From contig DRKF01000101.1 in assembly GCA_011051915.1 (NCBI GenBank), forward strand, positions 1 to 15,878: a stretch of DNA of 15,878 nucleotides, given 5' to 3'. The notes beneath the pieces are model-generated. The model was not told the DNA's origin. It did no database searches and saw only the letters and a list, made by a program, of their open reading frames with translations. The stretch comes from Acidimicrobiales bacterium. GTDB taxonomy: Bacteria > Actinomycetota > Acidimicrobiia > Acidimicrobiales > Poriferisodalaceae. Position 1 is the stretch's first letter; every line of letters starts with the position of its first letter. Below, in pieces: positions 969 through 9,175 of this stretch. The position numbers and the translations under genes were made by a program.

Positions 969-2240
969 TCAGGAATCCGAGGTCGACGGTCGGGCCGGGG
1001 CGCTCAGCCGGGACAGGATGTCCACTCCGGTGGCGTTCTCGATCTGCTCGGACAGCTTGACCACCGAGCCGGGCAGTTGGCTGAGCATTTGAGGCAGTCC
1101 GGCCTCGGCGCCCCCTCCGTCGATGATCGATATGCGGTCGATGTCGATCCCGTTCACGGTGCTCACGATCTTGTCGATGATGTCGGGCAGCATGTTCAGT
1201 ACGAAGATCTCCTCGGCATCGTCACCCGCCGAGCGGTACTGCTCGACCAGGCGTCGGAAGACCTCGATCTGGGCCTGACCGTCCTCGATGATCTTGGCGG
1301 CCTCACCCTTGGCCTGTAGTTCCAGGGCCTCCTTGTTGGCCCGGGCCGGAGCGATCACGTCGGCCTCGAGACGGCGCTTCTGCAGCTCGATGCGGGCCAG
1401 CTCCAGTTCCTGCTCGGCCACCACCCGGGACCGGTCGGCCTCCACCTTGGCCTGCTGCTCCTTGGCGACGGCGATGAGGTCCAGCTCGGCGGTCCTCACC
1501 CGGAGCTCGTTCTGACGTTCCACCACCTCCAGTTCGGCCTCCACCCGGGCGATCTCGGCCCTCTTCTGGGCTGCGGCCTCCTCGGCCTGGGCCTCGGCCT
1601 GGCGCTGGGCCTCCGCCACCCGGGCCTCCTTGAGGACCAGAGCCGTCTGGCGCCGCCCGACCGAGTCCAGGTAGCCGGCCTCGTCGGTGACGTTCTGGAT
1701 CTTCAGGACATCCAACTCGAGACCCAGCTTTCTGATGTCGTCGTCGGCCTCCTCGATCAGGGTCTGGGCGAACTTGAGCCGGTCCTCGTTGACCTCCTCG
1801 GGGGTGAGGGTGGCGAGCACGCCGCGGAGGTTCGCCTCCAGGGTCTCCTTGGCCAGGCGGGGAATGTAGTCCGCCGGTCGTCCCAGGAAGCGTTCGACGG
1901 AGTTCTCCAACAGGCCGGCCCTACTGGACAGCTTGATGTTGGCGATGCCCTGGACATTGAGGGGGATGGCGCCCCTGGAGTAGGCGTTCTGCACCGCCAC
2001 CTCGATGGCGATGGTGTTCAGGTCCATGAACTGGACCTTCTCGATTATCGGCCAGCGGAGGGTTCGACCACCGCGGAGCACCCGGTAGCCGACCTTGGTG
2101 CCGTCGGGCATCTCCCGGGTTCGACCGGTTATGACCGCTATCCGGTTGGGGGGACAGATGACGATGAACGACTTCACGGCCAAGGTGACCACTATCAGGG
2201 CCAGGGCGACCAGGGCGGCCACGGCGATCAGGAAACTCAC
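969..2240 (-). CDS. Flotillin-like SPFH/band-7 domain protein (YqiK/FloT-like)
   Basis: N-terminal TM helix, then an SPFH core (IAVITGRTRE...VQFMDLNTIAIEV...), then a long Ala/Glu/Gln-rich coiled-coil flotillin tail (AEAQRQAEAQAEEAAAQKRAEIARVEAELE). GTG start at 2240 follows an AAGGA SD. The start overlaps the upstream NfeD stop in a GTGA arrangement. Confidence 0.9.
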   Translation of the reverse strand: MSFLIAVAALVALALIVVTLAVKSFIVICPPNRIAVITGRTREMPDGTKVGYRVLRGGRTLRWPIIEKVQFMDLNTIAIEVAVQNAYSRGAIPLNVQGIANIKLSSRAGLLENSVERFLGRPADYIPRLAKETLEANLRGVLATLTPEEVNEDRLKFAQTLIEEADDDIRKLGLELDVLKIQNVTDEAGYLDSVGRRQTALVLKEARVAEAQRQAEAQAEEAAAQKRAEIARVEAELEVVERQNELRVRTAELDLIAVAKEQQAKVEADRSRVVAEQELELARIELQKRRLEADVIAPARANKEALELQAKGEAAKIIEDGQAQIEVFRRLVEQYRSAGDDAEEIFVLNMLPDIIDKIVSTVNGIDIDRISIIDGGGAEAGLPQMLSQLPGSVVKLSEQIENATGVDILSRLSAPARPSTSDS

Positions 2241-2871
2241 GGGAGGTCCTTTCGGTCTGAATCTCCGCCGAGGGCGGAGAATTCGGTGATGAGGGCGACA
2301 CCCTCCCGGATCTCGACCACCACGACCCGGTCACCCCGGTCGAACTGACGGTCGGAGGAGGTGGGGAAGGTGCCGGCGACGAGTTGGAGCGGCTGGCCGT
2401 CGAGGTCGACCTCGATTCGACCCCGGGTGGAGGGGCCGACGGGAACGATGACCCGGGCGAGGTGGCCCGAGATCCGGTCGTCGGGGATGAGGCTGTCGGT
2501 GTCGGAACCCCTGAGAAAACTCATCAGGCGGGCGTTCACGTAGGCGGCGAACAATCCGAGGACGACAGCGGTTCCGGCCGTGAGGAGGGGGCCGGTTCCG
2601 ATCCATGTGAGAACCACCCCGGTCAGTCCGAAGAAGGCGGCGAAGAACACCAGAGACCGGAACGACAGCAGGCCCGACAGCAGGCCCACACCCTCGGACC
2701 CCCAGGGGTGATCGCCGTGGAGATCGGACTCCAGGTCCAGGTCCAGGTCGGTGCCGAGATCCAGGTCGATTCCCGAATCGATGTCGATATCGAGATCGGC
2801 GCCCGAGATGAGCAGAACCACCGTGATCACCCAGCCGAAGACTGCGGCGAAGACGTAGATCCCGAACATGG
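2237..2871 (-). CDS. NfeD-family membrane protein (YqiJ-like short NfeD with C-terminal OB-fold), partner of flotillin
   Basis: TM1 (MFGIYVFAAVFGWVITVVLLI), an acidic (Asp-Leu/Ile)n linker, two further TM helices, then a C-terminal beta-rich domain (GRIEVDLDGQPLQLVAG...GDRVVVVEIREGVALI) typical of the NfeD OB-fold. The preferred start is ATG 2871 (GGTGA SD 7 nt upstream); the longest ORF would start at 2938. The stop overlaps the flotillin GTG start. Confidence 0.8.
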
Positions 2872-3027
2872 CCTCATCACCCCCGTCCGGCCACCGGATC
2901 GTCCCTGCGGCCCCACCCGTCGAGCGGGAGATCTTCACCCGCGGTCAGATCCTATCGGAACCCCGCCGGTCGCCCACTGCGGCGACCGCCAGCGGCTCCC
3001 CGCCGCCGGGGTCGGTAGTCTGACCCG

Positions 3028-3831
3028 GTGCCGGAGTTGCCCGAGGTCGAGACCATCCGACGCCAGCTCGATCCTCTGCTGGGAGGGCGGACGATCGTCT
3101 CCGTGGAGTCTCATCCCGCTGCCAACTTCGTGTCGGCCACCGACGCGCAAGGGGCCCGGATCGACGGGGTCGGACGCCGCGGCAAGTATCTGATCGTGCC
3201 TCTCGAGGACGGGAGGGAGTTGATCATCCACCTCGGGATGACCGGATCGCTGCGGATCGCCCCGCCCGGCGACCGCGGTGACCGCTACGTGAGGTCACGG
3301 TGGGAGCTCGAAGGCGGCGATGTCCTCGAGTTCCGTGACGTGAGGAGGTTCGGACGGATCGCGGTGGTCGACGCCGGGGACTACCGGTCCCTGCCCACCC
3401 TCGCCCGGCTGGGCCCCGAACCGTTGTCACCCGGGTTCGACGGTGATGTCCTGTGGGCCGGGCTGAAGAGGAGCAACCGCCGGGTGAAGACCCAGCTCCT
3501 CAGTCAGAGACCCGTGGCGGGGGTGGGCAACATCTACGCCGACGAGGCCCTGTTCCGCGCCGGGGTGAACCCCGCCCTGCGGCGCGTGACCCGGGCCCAG
3601 GCCGGTCGCCTCGCACCGGCCATCACCGCGGTGCTCTCAGAGGGGATCGAGCACGGTGGCACGACTCTGAGGGACTACCGCACGGTCAGCGGCGAACAGG
3701 GAGGTCATCAGTTCCACCTGCTCTGCTACGGCCGGGCGGGTGAGCCCTGTGTGAACTGCGGGGAGGAGCTCTCCGGGCGGGTACTGGACGGTCGTTCGAC
3801 CACCTGGTGCCGAAGCTGCCAACCTCGGTGA
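3028..3831 (+). CDS. mutM: Formamidopyrimidine-DNA glycosylase (Fpg/MutM, Fpg/Nei family)
   Basis: GTG start is directly followed by PELPEVETIRRQL, which gives the catalytic N-terminal Pro after Met removal. The H2TH region is present, and the C-terminal zinc finger is CVNCGEELSGRVLDGRSTTWCRSCQ (CxxC-x16-CxxC). Confidence 0.88.
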   Translation: MPELPEVETIRRQLDPLLGGRTIVSVESHPAANFVSATDAQGARIDGVGRRGKYLIVPLEDGRELIIHLGMTGSLRIAPPGDRGDRYVRSRWELEGGDVLEFRDVRRFGRIAVVDAGDYRSLPTLARLGPEPLSPGFDGDVLWAGLKRSNRRVKTQLLSQRPVAGVGNIYADEALFRAGVNPALRRVTRAQAGRLAPAITAVLSEGIEHGGTTLRDYRTVSGEQGGHQFHLLCYGRAGEPCVNCGEELSGRVLDGRSTTWCRSCQPR

Positions 3832-3867
3832 CCCGCATCCCCGGGCCTTCCGGCGGGGACGTGCCGA

Positions 3868-5055
3868 TCAGGAACGGGGGATGCCCAGACGGGGATCGGA
3901 TACGGCATCGGTGAAGGCCTCGAGGGCCTCGGGCGAGGACACGACCCGCCAGTCGGTCTCCTTGTCGACCTCGAACCAGATGAACCCGACGACATCGGAT
4001 CGGGAAGCGATGGCGTCGATGACGTGGGAGATCCATCCCGCCTTCTGTCCCCCGTCCTCGGTGGCGCCGATCTCCGTGATCACGATGGGTCGGTCGGTGA
4101 ATGATCTGACGATGTCGATGGTCGGGCCGAACAGCTGATCGAAGGTGGGTACGTAGACGGAGGGGTCGATCCCGTTTCCGAGGTAGCCCACCAGCCCCAC
4201 CCAGTCGACGTAGTCGTCACCGGGGTAGAGGCCCTCCAGCGGGGTGAGGTTCGGATCGTCCAGGTTCGGATTCCACACCCAGATCACCTGATCGGCCCCG
4301 GCCCGGGTGAAGATGTCGTGCACGTGGCGCCAGGCGGCGACGTACTGTCCGGAGCGATTGCCGTTGGTGCTCTCGGCCCAGGGATACCAGTAGCCGTTCA
4401 TCTCGTGGGCGAACCGGATGGCCACGGGTCGGTCCCATTCGGCCAGCCCGGCGGCCCACTGCTCTATCTCCTCGTCGAAGTCACCGGCGATGATCCGGGC
4501 CAGGGCGTACTCGGGCTGTTCTCCCCGGCGACGATCGAACGTCGACTCCACCGTGTGGTCCCACGGTTCCCAGGCGATCATCGGAAGGTGCCCCGCCGCG
4601 GTGATCTGCTCGATCGTGGTCAGGTCGAAGTCGGGGGTGGCCCAGTCCCGGCTGATCATCACCACCTCGGGGTCCACGCCGGTCGCCCGGCTGAACTCCT
4701 CCACCTCGGCGAGTTCGCCGTTGGCTGTGCTCACACCGACGAAAGTGGTCCCCGGAGTGCCGACCAGGTCCATCCACGCGTAGGGATCGGGGGGAACGGC
4801 GGTGGTGGTGGGCCCGGTGGTTTCGGGGGGCCCCTCGGTGCCGGTGGTGGAGGGAGCCGGGTCCGGGGTGGACGAGGCCACGGTGGTGACCGGGGTGGCA
4901 GTGGTCGACGTCGGCCGGGGTACCAGGGTTGTCGGGGCGGATGTGGCGGCATCGCTGCTGGTGGCGGGCGACGACCAGGTCGCGAGAACACTGATCAGCC
5001 CCATCGCCACCACGGCGAGGACTATCACCAGTTGTGCGGTCCGGCCCTGGGTCAT
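3868..5055 (-). CDS. Membrane-anchored or secreted glycoside hydrolase family 26 (beta-mannanase/lichenase-type) protein with an N-terminal Pro/Thr-rich linker
   Basis: N-terminal hydrophobic anchor (LVIVLAVVAMGLISVLA), then an approximately 60-aa S/T/P-rich linker, then a catalytic domain with the GH26 signature RFAHEMNGYWYPWA (HEMNG.W..W motif, acid/base Glu) and VITEIGA (nucleophile Glu). It is divergent from the GT2 synthase gene. Confidence 0.7.
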   Translation of the reverse strand: MTQGRTAQLVIVLAVVAMGLISVLATWSSPATSSDAATSAPTTLVPRPTSTTATPVTTVASSTPDPAPSTTGTEGPPETTGPTTTAVPPDPYAWMDLVGTPGTTFVGVSTANGELAEVEEFSRATGVDPEVVMISRDWATPDFDLTTIEQITAAGHLPMIAWEPWDHTVESTFDRRRGEQPEYALARIIAGDFDEEIEQWAAGLAEWDRPVAIRFAHEMNGYWYPWAESTNGNRSGQYVAAWRHVHDIFTRAGADQVIWVWNPNLDDPNLTPLEGLYPGDDYVDWVGLVGYLGNGIDPSVYVPTFDQLFGPTIDIVRSFTDRPIVITEIGATEDGGQKAGWISHVIDAIASRSDVVGFIWFEVDKETDWRVVSSPEALEAFTDAVSDPRLGIPRS

Positions 5056-5258
5056 GATCTATCCATCGGAAGCAACCCGCCCATACATAGTGATGGCGAG
5101 GTCTCCCCGGTCACAACCCACTCCTCGCGGGGGAGGAAGAACGGGAGGACCCTCGCTGCCCGGGCGCGACCCGCACCGGTGAGCGCAGCACCTAAGTTCC
5201 CGGGGGTCTCCACCCGATCGGAACCTGATGTACTCCTCGATCCCGGAGATCCCCACCC

Positions 5259-7211
5259 GTGCGTGAGGTGGATCTCTCCCGACCCCCCCATTCGGTTCCG
5301 CTGGCCACCTCCCTGGGAGGGTTGGAGCTGGCGGACGCCCCTCCGCCGCGTAGTCCGGCGGCCAGATCCGCTGTACACGCCCTGGCCCTGCTCACGGTGG
5401 TGGTGACCCTCGGATACCTGGGCTGGCGTCTCCTGTTCACGGTCAACTGGTCCGGCTGGTGGCTCTCCGTTCCCCTGTTCCTGCTGGAGGCCCATCTGGG
5501 TCTGAGGATGATCGTCACCATCGTCGAGCTGTGGGACACCGACACGATCGATCCTCCCGAACCGGTGTCGTCCCTGGCACCGGCCGGGCTGAGGGTGGCG
5601 GTTCTGATCACGACCTACGACGAGGGCCCCGAAGTGCTGCTGCCCACGGTCACCGCGGCGCTGGGGTTGAGCCCCGCACACGAGACGTGGATCCTCGACG
5701 ACGGTCATCGGCCCCAGGTGAGAGCCATGGCGGCGGCCCTGGGGGCCCGGTACCTCACCCGGCCCGACAACTCCCACGCCAAGGCCGGGAACATCAACCA
5801 CGCCCTGGGGGTGGTGGAGGCCGATCTGGTGGCGATTCTCGACGCCGACCACGTACCGGAACCCGACTTCCTCAACCACACCCTGGGCTACTTCGAGGAT
5901 CCCGCGGTGGCCCTCGTCCAGACCCCGCAGGAGTTCTACAACAACGACTCGTTCATCCACAGCGGTGGGGACGGCTTCCACGAGGAGCAGTTCTTCCACC
6001 GGGTGATCATGCCCGGCAAGAACCGGTGCAACGCCGCCTTTTGGTGTGGCACCAACGCCGTACTCAGGGTGGCCGCCCTCGACTACGTGGGAGGGGTCTC
6101 GACCTCGACCATCACCGAGGACATGCACACCACGCTGAGACTGCACAAGGCCGGCTGGCGGACCGTTCACCACAACGAGGTCCTGGCCCGGGGACTCGCC
6201 CCCCGGAACTTCGCCGAGTTCCAGACCCAGAGGTGGCGATGGGGAGCGGGGGCCATGCAGTCGGTGGCCATGGAGAATCCACTCGTGTCGTCGGGGCTGA
6301 CGCCGGGGCAGCGGATCATGTACCTGGGCTCGGCCCTGAGCTGGTTCGACAGCTGGCGGACCCTCGGTTTCCACATCGTCCCCGCTGTGGTCCTCCTGAC
6401 CGGGGTCGCCCCCCTCACGGTTCCCTTCGGGCAGCTCCTGGCGGCCCTCGCCGTGGTTCACCTGCTCCACATGTCCACCAGCCGGGTGATGAGCCGGGGC
6501 CGGTTGCGCCTCCGGTCGACCCTGCTGTTCGAGGTTCTCAAGATGCCGGCGAACATCAGCTCGTCGCTGATCTACCTGCGACCGAGGAAACTGAGCTTCG
6601 AGGTCACTCCCAAGGGTCGTACCGGAACTGGTCGCAGTCGGCACTCGGTCCCGGTCATGATCAAGGCCCTGATCACCCTGGACGTCGTCGCCTGGGCCTG
6701 GGCCACGGCCACCATGGCGGGGCTGACTCCCGTCGGCTATCCGGGCCGGTTGCCGGCCCTGGCCGGGGTGGCCTGGCTGCTGATCAACCTCACCTTCCTG
6801 GCCCTGGCCGCCGAACGGATCCACGACGCGGGGTTCGGGTCGGAACGAAGGGCCGGTCACCGGGTGGGACTCTCCGTCCCGGCCCGAGTCGCCTGGAGCG
6901 GTGGTCCCGGAGGGGGCGATCATGGCGTCACCGCCATGGTGGAGGATGTTTCCCTGGCCGGGGCCGGCCTGGTCGTCGCCGCCGGGTCCCCGGTTCCCGA
7001 GGTGGGCTCCGAAGTCGTTCTCACCGTGTTCCTGGGCGCCGTACCCGTGACCCTGACGGGGTTCATCCGAAAGAGCACCGATCGTGGGTCCAGCGGGGAG
7101 CACTCGTTGGGAATCGAGTTCTCCGAGGGGCAGTGGCGCGATCTCTCCCGCCTGGCGAATGCCCTCTTCCGTGCCGGTCTGACGTCGAGGTTGGTTCCGG
7201 TGGCGGCGTGA
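5259..7211 (+). CDS. Processive family-2 glycosyltransferase (cellulose-synthase/BcsA-like beta-glycan synthase) with a C-terminal PilZ c-di-GMP-binding domain
   Basis: Two N-terminal TM helices, then a GT-A domain with ILDDGHRP (DDG), ILDADH (DxD), ITEDMHT (TED) and QTQRWRWG (QxxRW). Multiple C-terminal TM helices follow. The PilZ domain carries RRAGHR (RRxxxR, nt about 6846-6863) and, about 28 aa later, DVSLAG (DxSxxG, nt about 6945-6962). GTG start at 5259; the exact start is uncertain. Confidence 0.88.
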   Translation: MREVDLSRPPHSVPLATSLGGLELADAPPPRSPAARSAVHALALLTVVVTLGYLGWRLLFTVNWSGWWLSVPLFLLEAHLGLRMIVTIVELWDTDTIDPPEPVSSLAPAGLRVAVLITTYDEGPEVLLPTVTAALGLSPAHETWILDDGHRPQVRAMAAALGARYLTRPDNSHAKAGNINHALGVVEADLVAILDADHVPEPDFLNHTLGYFEDPAVALVQTPQEFYNNDSFIHSGGDGFHEEQFFHRVIMPGKNRCNAAFWCGTNAVLRVAALDYVGGVSTSTITEDMHTTLRLHKAGWRTVHHNEVLARGLAPRNFAEFQTQRWRWGAGAMQSVAMENPLVSSGLTPGQRIMYLGSALSWFDSWRTLGFHIVPAVVLLTGVAPLTVPFGQLLAALAVVHLLHMSTSRVMSRGRLRLRSTLLFEVLKMPANISSSLIYLRPRKLSFEVTPKGRTGTGRSRHSVPVMIKALITLDVVAWAWATATMAGLTPVGYPGRLPALAGVAWLLINLTFLALAAERIHDAGFGSERRAGHRVGLSVPARVAWSGGPGGGDHGVTAMVEDVSLAGAGLVVAAGSPVPEVGSEVVLTVFLGAVPVTLTGFIRKSTDRGSSGEHSLGIEFSEGQWRDLSRLANALFRAGLTSRLVPVAA

Positions 7212-7352
7212 GGACGGGAGAAGCAGAGAAGATCGCGACCGGGGGGCGGCGCCCGGCGTCCTCTGTGCGTAGTAGAAACTGAGGTGGTCTCCAATTTGGC
7301 GGCCACGTGCTACCGGAACACAGGACGTACTCACCGACACGGAGGATGGGAC

Positions 7353-7547
7353 ATGGGTCTCAAGGACTTCGCCGACAAGGCCAAGGATGCTCTCGGGGAT
7401 GCCCGCGAGAAGATCGAGGACGTGGCCGAGGCCGCCGTCGACAAGGTCGACGACATGACCGGGGGGAAGGTTCCCGACAAGGTCAAGGATCTCGTCGACA
7501 AGATCGACGGCGAGGACGACGACGCCGCCGAGGGCGCAGAGAGCTGA
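7353..7547 (+). CDS. Small acidic protein (64 aa), MT0933-like antitoxin / CsbD-like general-stress family
   Basis: ATG at 7353 has a GGAGGA SD 7 nt upstream. The sequence MGLKDFADKAKDALGDAREKIEDVAEAAVDKVDDMTGGKVPDKVKDLVDKIDGEDDD has the KAKD..G...DK.TGGK..DK.D pattern of the MT0933/Rv0909-like family. Confidence 0.6.
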   Translation: MGLKDFADKAKDALGDAREKIEDVAEAAVDKVDDMTGGKVPDKVKDLVDKIDGEDDDAAEGAES

Positions 7548-7644
7548 ACCCGGTGGAAGGGGGATGACCCTCCTCCGGTGGCAATCGCCGATCCGCGTCC
7601 CCTCGGGTGAACCGGACCCGGTGGTCACCGATCGAGAATGAACC

Positions 7645-7673
7645 GGAGGCGGGACCGTCGAGGTCCCGCCTCC
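7645..7673. terminator. Perfect 11-bp GC-rich hairpin (GGAGGCGGGAC-cgtcgag-GTCCCGCCTCC) between convergent genes; putative bidirectional intrinsic terminator
   Basis: An exact 11-bp inverted repeat with a 7-nt loop lies about 95 bp past the small-protein stop and about 100 bp past the coiled-coil gene stop. It is followed by cgcgttctc. Actinobacterial terminators often lack long U-tracts. Confidence 0.4.
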
Positions 7674-7771
7674 CGCGTTCTCGAGCTGTTCCGCGTCGGT
7701 GCGCTGTCCGGATCGGGTGGGGTCCCGGGTGCTGGTCCCGGCTCGGCCACTGCCGAGGGCGTCCGGGCTTC

Positions 7772-9175
7772 TCAGATCGGGATGATCTCGGCCGGAACTC
7801 CCTCGGGCATCAGGGTGGAGTCGCGCAGGTCGATCGTCGGTTCCGACGCCTCGGTCCCCTGCGGCGCCCCCGATTCGGAGTCGGCTGGGTTCCCGGCGGC
7901 GGGCTCGGCCGCGGCGGCCAGCTCGGTGCGCAGGTCCCTCAGTTCGGCCCGGAACCCGTGCACCAGGTGGGCGAGGGTGATCTCCTCGAGGTCGCTGCCT
8001 CTCATGGTGTTGATGGTGTCGGCCAGTTCGGTGGCGGTCACCACCCCGGGAAGAGCCGAGTTCGAGCGGAGTTCGGCCAGCTCGGCCGACATGTCGTACA
8101 CCGCGGTCGACAGGTCGGCTGTCTCGGCCTCCACGCCCTCCATCGTCGACAGCCGTGCCGCCATGTCGTCCACGGTGGCGGAGAGCCGTTCGATGGACGA
8201 CGCCTGGCGTTGATGGGCGGCCATCAGCTCCCTCCGGACGGCGACCACCGTCTCGGCGAGGTTCTCCACGGACTCCTCGATCCGGCGGGTGTCACCCGAC
8301 GGTCGATCGTCGGCGACGGCCTCGCGTCGTAGTTCCACCATCGCCCGGGCCAGTTGCTCGATGGAGCGGTTGACCGTCGCGATCTGTTCGCTTCCGGCCA
8401 CCTCGGTACGGATCTCGGCCCGCAGCAGATCCACGCCCTCGGTCAACAGAGCCAGGTTCTCATAGAGGCTCTCGACGCGGGCGGGAAGGTCGAGCAGGGG
8501 TACGAGCGTCTCGTGAACGGTGTCGACGGTGCGGGCCGTCGCGGCAACCGTGTCGGGAACAGCGGCCAGGGCCTCCTGGGACCGGACGAGCTGATTGACC
8601 TGTTCGTGGATACGCCCCAGACGGGTCGGGGTCGCCGCCAGGGCCTGGGCCATCTCCAGCAGCCTGTCGATGCGGGGATCGGGTTCGGTCGGCTCCTCGG
8701 GTTCGGCCATGACCTGGAGGATCTCGAGGACCTGGCCCAGCCGAGGGTCGGACACGGGTTCGTTGCGCAGTTCTTGGAGCAGACCCAGCATCTGTTCGAT
8801 ACGTGGGTCTGCGGCGGTCACCGGAATCTGCCCGATGCGCGGGTCTGCGGCGGTCACCGGTATCTGTTCGACTCGGGGGTGGATGCCGGCTCCCACACTG
8901 GTGATGGGTCCCGGGGTGTTCACCGGGGGAGGGGTGCTGTGGTTTCCCGTCGTGGTCGGGTTGGCGGCGGGTGCGGGCCACCAACCGCCGGTGGCGGCCG
9001 GCGGTGCCGAGGGTGACAGCCGTCCCGGCTGGGCGATGATCTGCTCGCACCCGGGGCGTAGTCCGGCGCAGGTCGTTCCCGTCGAGGGGCAGACGCAGTA
9101 GCCGCCCTCCGGTGCGACCGTCATGGCGGAGTCGTCACCGTCCAGAGCGATTCCGAAGTCGTAGCAGTAACCCAT
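7772..9175 (-). CDS. Hypothetical 467-aa protein with a Cys-rich N-terminus, Pro-rich linker, DPR(I/L)xQ repeat block and long coiled-coil C-terminal region
   Basis: The minus-strand ORF has protein-like composition, whereas the overlapping plus-strand ORFs are Arg/Gly-rich artefacts. The GGAGGG SD lies before ATG 9175. The repeats are HPRVEQ / DPRIGQ / DPRIEQ / DPRLGQ / DPRIDR. The C-terminal 300 aa show a Leu/Glu/Ala/Arg-rich heptad pattern. Confidence 0.6.
   Translation of the reverse strand: MGYCYDFGIALDGDDSAMTVAPEGGYCVCPSTGTTCAGLRPGCEQIIAQPGRLSPSAPPAATGGWWPAPAANPTTTGNHSTPPPVNTPGPITSVGAGIHPRVEQIPVTAADPRIGQIPVTAADPRIEQMLGLLQELRNEPVSDPRLGQVLEILQVMAEPEEPTEPDPRIDRLLEMAQALAATPTRLGRIHEQVNQLVRSQEALAAVPDTVAATARTVDTVHETLVPLLDLPARVESLYENLALLTEGVDLLRAEIRTEVAGSEQIATVNRSIEQLARAMVELRREAVADDRPSGDTRRIEESVENLAETVVAVRRELMAAHQRQASSIERLSATVDDMAARLSTMEGVEAETADLSTAVYDMSAELAELRSNSALPGVVTATELADTINTMRGSDLEEITLAHLVHGFRAELRDLRTELAAAAEPAAGNPADSESGAPQGTEASEPTIDLRDSTLMPEGVPAEIIPI
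8796..8867. repeat. Imperfect 36-bp tandem duplication inside the coiled-coil gene, encoding IPVTAADPRIGQ / IPVTAADPRIEQ
   Basis: cgatacgtgggtctgcggcggtcaccggaatctgcc is followed directly by cgatgcgcgggtctgcggcggtcaccggtatctgtt, with 5 mismatches in 36. Confidence 0.8.

Follow-up and report, generated by a model that had tools for sequence, protein, structure and literature searches.

What does a bacterium make with a cellulose synthase-like enzyme when the glycanase encoded beside it comes from a family with no known cellulase, and how is that synthesis controlled? This question is raised by a divergent gene pair in contig DRKF01000101.1 (15,878 nt), which belongs to a metagenome-assembled genome (MAG) of an Acidimicrobiales bacterium. 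We call this whole stretch of DNA the window, and coordinates are window positions unless a locus number precedes them. One gene of the pair (3868..5055, minus strand) encodes a glycanase of glycoside hydrolase family 26 (GH26), and the other (5259..7211, plus strand) encodes a BcsA-like processive glycosyltransferase of family 2 (GT2) fused to a PilZ domain. With somewhat better than even confidence, we believe that the pair is a minimal, BcsB-independent beta-glucan synthase, probably gated by cyclic di-GMP (c-di-GMP), together with its cognate glycanase; the product we favor, more tentatively, is a mixed-linkage glucan.

Both open reading frames (ORFs) were kept by a gene call based on GC content at third codon positions (GC3), which discarded a long antisense ORF at 5052-7628. 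We checked this gene call on the window and used it since clustering of unfiltered ORFs gave spurious high-GC ORFs.

A BcsA-type synthase fused to PilZ

By its motifs, profile matches and structure model, the synthase (650 amino acids plus stop) is a BcsA-type processive GT2 enzyme fused to a canonical PilZ domain. The gene begins with GTG, and we consider this start confirmed because the closest relative among the loci compared, L081 (87% identical), has ATG at the same aligned position. Four Pfam GT2 models matched the protein (best Glyco_tranf_2_3, E = 1e-27), as did Cellulose_synt with 33.8 bits (cutoff 24.7) and PilZ (PF07238) with 29.6 bits (cutoff 22.5). The NCBIfam model TIGR03030, cellulose synthase catalytic subunit, covers residues 38-637 with E = 1e-100. 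The equivalog scores are low: PRK11498 gives 248.3 bits against a cutoff of 992, and TIGR03030 gives 337.8 bits against 699.1, far enough below that the enzyme is BcsA-like but not an orthologue by the NCBI criterion.

We aligned the synthase with 14 homologues that ranged from 45 to 87% identity. The catalytic residues D147-D148-G149, D195-A-D197, T286-E-D288 and Q324-R-x-R-W328 were invariant, and so was the gating loop F447-x-V-T-P-K-G453. The original prediction had recognized a BcsA-type synthase from DDG, DAD and TED, which holds, and had read the QxxRW motif as QTQRW (Q322-W326); the motif is indeed present, but the copy homologous to that of BcsA is Q324-R-W-R-W328. The three aspartates, TED and QxxRW, combined with a transmembrane channel and an FxVTxK loop, place the enzyme among BcsA-type processive GT2 synthases.

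The AlphaFold model (predicted local distance difference test score, pLDDT, 75.9; predicted TM-score 0.76; gating loop at low confidence) has six transmembrane helices, not the approximately eight that had been predicted, and hydropathy agrees with the model. Two of these are N-terminal (aa 33-61 and 64-91; 5355..5531, plus strand). The other four (approximately aa 349-381, 390-411, 466-486 and 497-522) are in the C-terminal membrane region (aa 349-522; 6303..6824, plus strand), and there are two amphipathic interface helices at 318-338 and 418-439. The cytosolic GT-A catalytic domain with its interface helix spans aa 113-338 (5595..6272, plus strand) and carries DDG147-149, DAD195-197, TED286-288 and QRWRW324-328. 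The gating loop is at aa 440-465 (6576-6653, plus strand), and the PilZ domain is at aa 529-637 (6843..7169, plus strand). The latter has the motifs R531xxxR535 and D563-V-S565-x-x-G568, and its beta-barrel (536-621) is followed by a C-terminal helix (626-637).

In a Foldseek search with this model, E. coli and Rhodobacter BcsA were the top matches (E = 3.6e-33, TM-score 0.72-0.73, about 630 columns), while plant CesA and CslF6 ranked well behind. In the alignment with Rhodobacter BcsA, FEVTPK of the synthase falls opposite the FAVTAK gating loop and R531/R535 fall opposite R580/R584. The alignment with E. coli BcsA begins at BcsA residue 193, and the extra N-terminal helices of BcsA are missing in the synthase.

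The GH26 glycanase

The second protein (395 amino acids plus stop) is predicted to be a membrane-anchored extracytoplasmic glycanase. It matches Glyco_hydro_26 (PF02156) with E = 6.1e-15 and 55.8 bits against a cutoff of 20.2, so all of the domain assignments of the original prediction (GH26, GT2/Cellulose_synt and PilZ) are above their Pfam cutoffs. The catalytic domain (aa 93-395; 3871..4779, minus strand) is modeled as a (beta/alpha)8 TIM barrel, mostly with pLDDT above 90 (82.8 for the whole protein). The catalytic signatures named in that prediction are present as H217-E218-M-N-G221 and T327-E328. The acid/base E218 (nt 4402-4404) and the nucleophile E328 (nt 4072-4074) are invariant in an alignment of 22 homologues, from which we also built the family profile, and they align with E109 and E222 of CtLic26A, the lichenase module of Clostridium thermocellum CelH. 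With the Pfam score, the fold and both catalytic glutamates in agreement, we assign the protein to GH26.

The predicted anchor and the Pro/Thr-rich linker also stood up. The N-terminal hydrophobic helix is at aa 3-27 in the model (4975..5049, minus strand) and is a signal anchor or an uncleaved signal peptide; the Kyte-Doolittle peak is 2.62 over aa 3-31. Because Arg5 precedes the hydrophobic helix, we predict an extracellular catalytic domain. The linker at aa 29-92 (4780..4971, minus strand) contains 19 Thr, 14 Pro and 8 Ser among its 64 residues and appears disordered, with pLDDT below 50 for aa 29-81.

CtLic26A was the only close relative with a solved structure, and it was matched over the whole domain, with phmmer E = 1.4e-39 from the single sequence and E = 4.2e-60 from the family profile. 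The best mannanases matched only a core of about 100 residues (E = 1.5e-10 and 1.8e-15, respectively). Foldseek gave the same ranking, with CtLic26A (2cip/2bv9) at a target TM-score of 0.87-0.90 and a root-mean-square deviation of 2.2-2.5 Å, against 0.69 or less for all other GH26 structures. The two proteins are 40% identical over 251 residues, and 35 of the 51 alignable positions that are invariant in the family are common to both, including both catalytic glutamates, HExNGxWxPW and the C-terminal KETDWR. By full-domain similarity in sequence and structure, the protein therefore falls in the lichenase (CtLic26A) sub-branch of GH26.

This does not agree with the public annotation. NCBI names the protein "beta-mannanase", and NCBI and JGI name its homologues beta-mannanase or mannan endo-1,4-beta-mannosidase; for this protein family we believe that the annotation is probably wrong. 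GH26 as a whole is described as a family of mannanases, xylanases (beta-1,3- and mixed-linkage) and one beta-1,3/1,4-glucanase, with no cellulase among them (PMC10470212). Most of the characterized members are mannanases, and GH26 genes have been noted, uncharacterized, in other actinobacterial exopolysaccharide clusters (PMC13390465).

Linkage of the two genes across genomes

To see how often the genes occur together, we started from the synthase and looked at 80 species-representative genomes with a homologous synthase, 42 from Actinomycetota and 38 from Chloroflexota. GH26 flanks the synthase in 11 of these loci, all of them in Actinomycetota (11/42 versus 0/38). In the window's own synthase clade, GH26 is beside the synthase in 5 of 5 loci. 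L081 is syntenic with the window throughout, and a relative at 58% identity keeps the divergent GH26-synthase pair while all of its downstream genes are different. The other pairs, among them those of L033, L057, L058 and L073, are on separate branches of the synthase tree; in these, GH26 precedes or follows the synthase or has two to three copies, and the orientations differ. No other glycoside hydrolase family was found among the recurrent neighbors of the synthases, including those of the loci that have no GH26, and the neighbors of the Chloroflexota synthases are housekeeping genes.

We also ran the test in reverse, starting from 80 metagenomic relatives of the GH26 protein and inspecting their flanks for GT2 genes, and this is the stronger evidence of pairing. 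All 18 of the closest relatives (41-59% identity) adjoin a processive GT2. In 17 of them it is a PilZ-less GT2 directly upstream on the same strand; the remaining one has a PilZ-type GT2 and apparently comes from the same organism as L003. Among the 62 more distant relatives, many of them on short contigs, about 6 have any GT2 nearby. The pair is co-conserved across related genomes, as the original prediction requires, in several clades and orientations.

A second GT2-GH26 operon in cultured actinomycetes

In a second type of operon, GH26 overlaps or abuts a PilZ-less GT2. It occurs in Kitasatospora purpeofusca, Micromonospora sp. NBC_01796 and a Dactylosporangium (L085:5995-9383, L086:5996-9143 and L087:6061-9134), and also in metagenome loci L089-L105, many from soil. 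The GT2 of this type has 647-668 amino acids and no PilZ domain, with IIED replacing TED and with QQKRW, and its GT core shares 31% identity with that of the window synthase. GH26 follows directly after it and is 45-53% identical to the window GH26. In the Kitasatospora operon, a GH12-ricin protein comes after GH26. L104 and L105 have a GGDEF gene about 2 kb upstream of the operon. Our literature search found no description of such an operon. Since the same GH26 clade is in an operon with a second type of GT2 in cultured, genetically tractable actinomycetes, the product should be experimentally identifiable, and we consider this operon the most useful by-product of the analysis.

Probable control by c-di-GMP

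The PilZ domain is intact, as had been predicted. Its R531, R535, D563, S565 and G568 are the same in all 14 synthase homologues, even at 45% identity, in a domain that otherwise varies. The motif D563-V-S-L-A-G568 also fits the refined PilZ consensus [D/N]hSxxG (bioRxiv 10.1101/814665).

Among the 87 neighbors of actinobacterial synthase loci that have no GH26, EAL is the most frequent family, and GGDEF is also present. GGDEF-EAL or EAL genes are directly beside GT2-PilZ synthases at L078:9788-12283, L074:83-1321 and L080:10059-10874, the last in the cultured Antribacter soli, and one at L036:1381-2022 is about 5.8 kb upstream of its synthase. These neighbors of homologous synthases support a connection to c-di-GMP. 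From the motifs, and by analogy with BcsA, the window synthase is probably gated by c-di-GMP.

Comparison with known systems

The BcsA-BcsB-BcsZ system of Rhodobacter/Cereibacter sphaeroides and E. coli shares with the window the D, D, D, QxxRW and TED motifs, the FxVTxK loop, the PilZ RxxxR and DxSxxG motifs, the fold (TM-score 0.72-0.73, at 24-28% identity) and an extracytoplasmic glycanase encoded beside the synthase. It differs in several respects. The window synthase does not have the N-terminal part of BcsA and has 6 transmembrane helices versus 8, it has Arg316 in place of E371, and it scores below the equivalog cutoff; the glycanase is GH26, not GH8; and the module has no BcsB. For BcsB, we found no Pfam match in the window ORFs and no tblastn match in the window or in 167 related loci, although the sensitivity of tblastn is limited; this agrees with the original prediction that no BcsB-like subunit is encoded here.

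The best architectural precedent for the window synthase is RiGT2 of Romboutsia ilealis, which according to PMC10374906 is a BcsB-less GT2-PilZ enzyme shown experimentally to make (1,3;1,4)-beta-glucan. RiGT2 and the related Cgs enzymes of Clostridia are described there as single-subunit GT2-PilZ proteins of about 640 amino acids with two N-terminal transmembrane helices, no bcsB and a monoderm host, all as in the window, and RiGT2 and the window synthase share 34% identity over 348 amino acids of the GT core. However, the two are not close: in a neighbor-joining tree, of which we used only the topology, the actinobacterial and chloroflexal synthases form a clade of their own apart from RiGT2, and over 555 aligned columns RiGT2 is 27.6% identical, versus 27.2% for BcsA and 27.0% for BgsA. 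The host phylum also differs, and the passages of PMC10374906 that were searched do not mention an adjacent glycanase.

BgsBA of Sinorhizobium meliloti includes a c-di-GMP-regulated GT2 of similar size and 27% identity, with a diguanylate cyclase gene beside the bgs operon. According to PMC10374906, it is a C-terminus of non-PilZ type that binds c-di-GMP in BgsA, which also depends on the periplasmic adaptor BgsB, whereas the C-terminus of the window synthase is a canonical PilZ. There was no tblastn match to BgsB in the window or in the 167 related loci, with the same limit on sensitivity, and bgsA of S. meliloti has no GH26 in its 4-kb flanks.

On the side of the glycanase, CtLic26A shares the GH26 sub-branch, both catalytic glutamates, HExNGxWxPW and KETDWR. 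Unlike it, the window GH26 stands alone, is membrane-anchored, has an insertion at about aa 170-215 and is genetically tied to a synthase. In Streptomyces, the synthase CslA is not known to have a PilZ domain, and its glycanase CslZ belongs to GH6. Like the window, the CslA-GlxA-CslZ system combines a processive GT2 of an actinobacterium with a glycanase gene beside it and does without BcsB, and cslA and glxA are linked (PMC8892547). A Pfam scan found no GlxA-like oxidase among the window ORFs.

Proposed product and mechanism, and alternative explanations

By homology, the synthase would polymerize a UDP-sugar, most likely UDP-glucose, at its BcsA-type GT-A site. The resulting beta-glycan would be threaded through the synthase's own six-helix channel without BcsB, as the modeled architecture suggests. 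Binding of c-di-GMP to PilZ would shift the FxVTPKG gating loop and open the active site; the motifs for this are in place, and the gating would follow that of BcsA. Outside the cell, GH26, tethered by its anchor and flexible Pro/Thr linker, would cleave the nascent polymer for release, sizing or clearing, as BcsZ, PssZ and CslZ do. By analogy, the module may work like a two-gene BcsA/BcsZ pair for a monoderm envelope. The weakest step is the product, for which we favor a mixed beta-1,3/1,4 beta-glucan over crystalline cellulose or mannan because the GH26 is in the lichenase branch. This choice is provisional, and it is drawn from the GH26 only. The original prediction had considered cellulose improbable and named a mannan or a mixed-linkage glucan as possible; a full-length match, among solved GH26 structures, to CtLic26A only speaks against the first of these and for a glucan with a lichenase-type site.

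Several observations weigh against this reading, and we consider them together with the explanations that they would favor. No GH26 was found within the flanks examined in 69 of the 80 synthase loci, so the glycanase is not obligatory. Besides the pair, the conserved block of the window's clade includes Fpg and, in part of the members, an S58 peptidase, both unrelated to polysaccharide synthesis; local synteny alone therefore proves little, and the adjacency could be inheritance. The two genes might then be neighbors by inherited synteny only, with the GH26 foraging for environmental glucans unrelated to what the synthase makes. CtLic26A itself is a cellulosomal enzyme, a module of a multidomain protein, and degrades plant glucan. 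We find this explanation quite improbable, because unrelated synthase clades show the same pairing, with differing orientation and copy number (L033, L057, L058, L073), because the 18 nearest metagenomic GH26 relatives all flank a processive GT2, and because cultured actinomycetes have GH26 in an operon with a different type of GT2, with the coding regions overlapping or nearly abutting. A single-pass anchor with a linker also suits a role at the cell surface better than it suits a secreted foraging enzyme. With regard to control, the window contains no GGDEF or EAL gene, and while the counterpart of BcsA R580 (R531) is conserved, its autoinhibitory salt-bridge partner E371 aligns with Arg316, a position that is variable in the homologues. 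In the assays of PMC10374906, RiGT2 needs its PilZ domain yet neither bound c-di-GMP nor responded to it, with no stimulation in vitro, so PilZ motifs alone do not guarantee a response. About one third of the synthase homologues have no precomputed PilZ Pfam match. It could be that the polymer is made as we propose but that PilZ is structural only, with no gating by c-di-GMP. We judge this unlikely, given the five invariant residues in an otherwise varying domain, the fit to the consensus motif, and the EAL or GGDEF-EAL genes beside the synthases of L074, L078 and L080 and within a few kb in L036.

With regard to the product, the insertion in the GH26 family at about aa 170-215 has invariant residues of its own, is missing in CtLic26A and could alter the subsites, and 40% sequence identity to one characterized lichenase does not fix the substrate. 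The synthase is 27-28% identical to enterobacterial BcsA, which makes cellulose, and equally to S. meliloti BgsA and RiGT2, which both make mixed-linkage glucan; since it is equidistant from the three, its sequence cannot decide the product. The pair could thus be a plain cellulose (beta-1,4-glucan) synthase with the GH26 as a non-orthologous stand-in for the BcsZ endoglucanase. TIGR03030 is the synthase's best family match, BcsA enzymes are its top Foldseek matches, and JGI names its homologues cellulose synthase. The GH12 enzyme after GH26 in the Kitasatospora operon points the same way, as GH12 enzymes are mostly beta-1,4-endoglucanases. We regard plain cellulose as unlikely, though by no means far-fetched: the TIGR03030 score is less than half of the equivalog cutoff, GH26 is described as having no cellulase (PMC10470212) and the close relative here is a lichenase, and RiGT2 (PMC10374906) shows that a BcsA-like sequence is compatible with the synthesis of mixed-linkage glucan. 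A synthase of beta-mannan or glucomannan, paired with its own beta-mannanase, would agree with the NCBI and JGI names of the GH26 homologues and with the preponderance of mannanases among characterized GH26 enzymes (PMC13390465). It is very improbable in our view, as mannanases match only the core where CtLic26A matches the full domain, reach target TM-scores of at most 0.69 where CtLic26A reaches 0.87-0.90, and the synthase aligns best with UDP-glucose-using BcsA enzymes. The reading that we prefer is a beta-glucan synthase with a cognate lichenase-type GH26.

Neighboring genes and intergenic features

The 203-bp divergent intergenic region (5056..5258) presumably holds both promoters. In the alignment of the window with L081, two blocks, at approximately 5053-5082 and 5205-5232, are identical or nearly so while the rest has diverged, and both contain ATCGGAA. 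The second block includes the palindrome CCGATCGG. From these two sequences, the blocks may be a shared operator. There was no sigma-70 consensus match in 3700-7700, and no Rfam family, c-di-GMP riboswitches included, in the window.

The original prediction had suggested that two nearby proteins could be accessory or scaffold components, by analogy with the CslA-DivIVA tip localization of Streptomyces. These are the MT0933-like protein (7284-7547, probably starting at Met24) and a 467-aa coiled-coil protein (7772-9175, minus strand). Both are conserved only in L081; they are replaced in the relative at 58% identity and missing in all other loci, so we do not count them as parts of the module, and the analogy finds no support in the window's neighbors. 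No Pfam model matches the 467-aa protein, which is 67% identical in L081. Its N-terminus is Cys-rich, and it further contains a Pro-rich stretch, several copies of a DPR(I/L)xQ motif and a long, acidic, helical segment that gives only weak NCBIfam coiled-coil matches (SMC, PspA). Between these two convergent genes, 7645-7673 contains a 12-bp GC-rich hairpin that is probably a terminator.

Elsewhere in the window, an SPFH/Band-7 gene (969-2240, minus strand) overlaps by 4 nt the upstream gene for a 233-aa multi-pass membrane protein with no family match (2237-2938, minus strand). The arrangement (969-2938) resembles NfeD-SPFH operons and is kept in L081.

In the window's wider clade, a conserved 294-aa S-adenosylmethionine (SAM)-dependent methyltransferase follows the synthase on the same strand (L082:11921-12805, with equivalents in L001-L004, L083 and L088), and beyond it the opposite strand carries an Asn-synthase-like gene and a GT4 cluster. 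In these relatives, the methyltransferase might act on the polymer; it, the Asn-synthase-like gene and the GT4 cluster are all missing from the window and L081. In Limnocylindria-type Chloroflexota loci (L008, L009, L014, L015, L018, L026, L061, L066), a GDSL-like acylhydrolase and a 400-aa secreted protein of no family flank the synthase, which may reflect different accessory functions or simply local synteny.

Implications

In a full-text literature search, we found neither an account of GH26 coupled with a PilZ synthase nor one of such synthases in Acidimicrobiia, in line with the original prediction that the combination was undescribed. We tentatively raise the broader possibility, which we would not yet bet on, that the GH26-GT2 pairing marks an unrecognized pathway, found across the actinobacterial phylum, by which a beta-glucan of mixed-linkage or other non-cellulosic type is secreted. 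A PilZ-gated form would occur in Acidimicrobiia, Nitriliruptoria and some Mycobacteriales, and a PilZ-less form in cultured Kitasatospora, Micromonospora and Dactylosporangium and in many soil metagenomes. If this is true, Actinomycetota would gain their first mixed-linkage glucan system, and a lichenase-type GH26 would for the first time be seen as a synthase's dedicated processing enzyme.

In oceans, lakes, soils and sponges, Acidimicrobiia are abundant and have almost wholly escaped culture, and their surface polymers and second-messenger outputs are poorly known; the module would offer a concrete, testable c-di-GMP output for them. It would also extend BcsB-independent, PilZ-carrying synthases beyond Clostridia and give a likely native role in exopolysaccharide processing to the lichenase branch of GH26, so far represented by a single cellulosomal enzyme.

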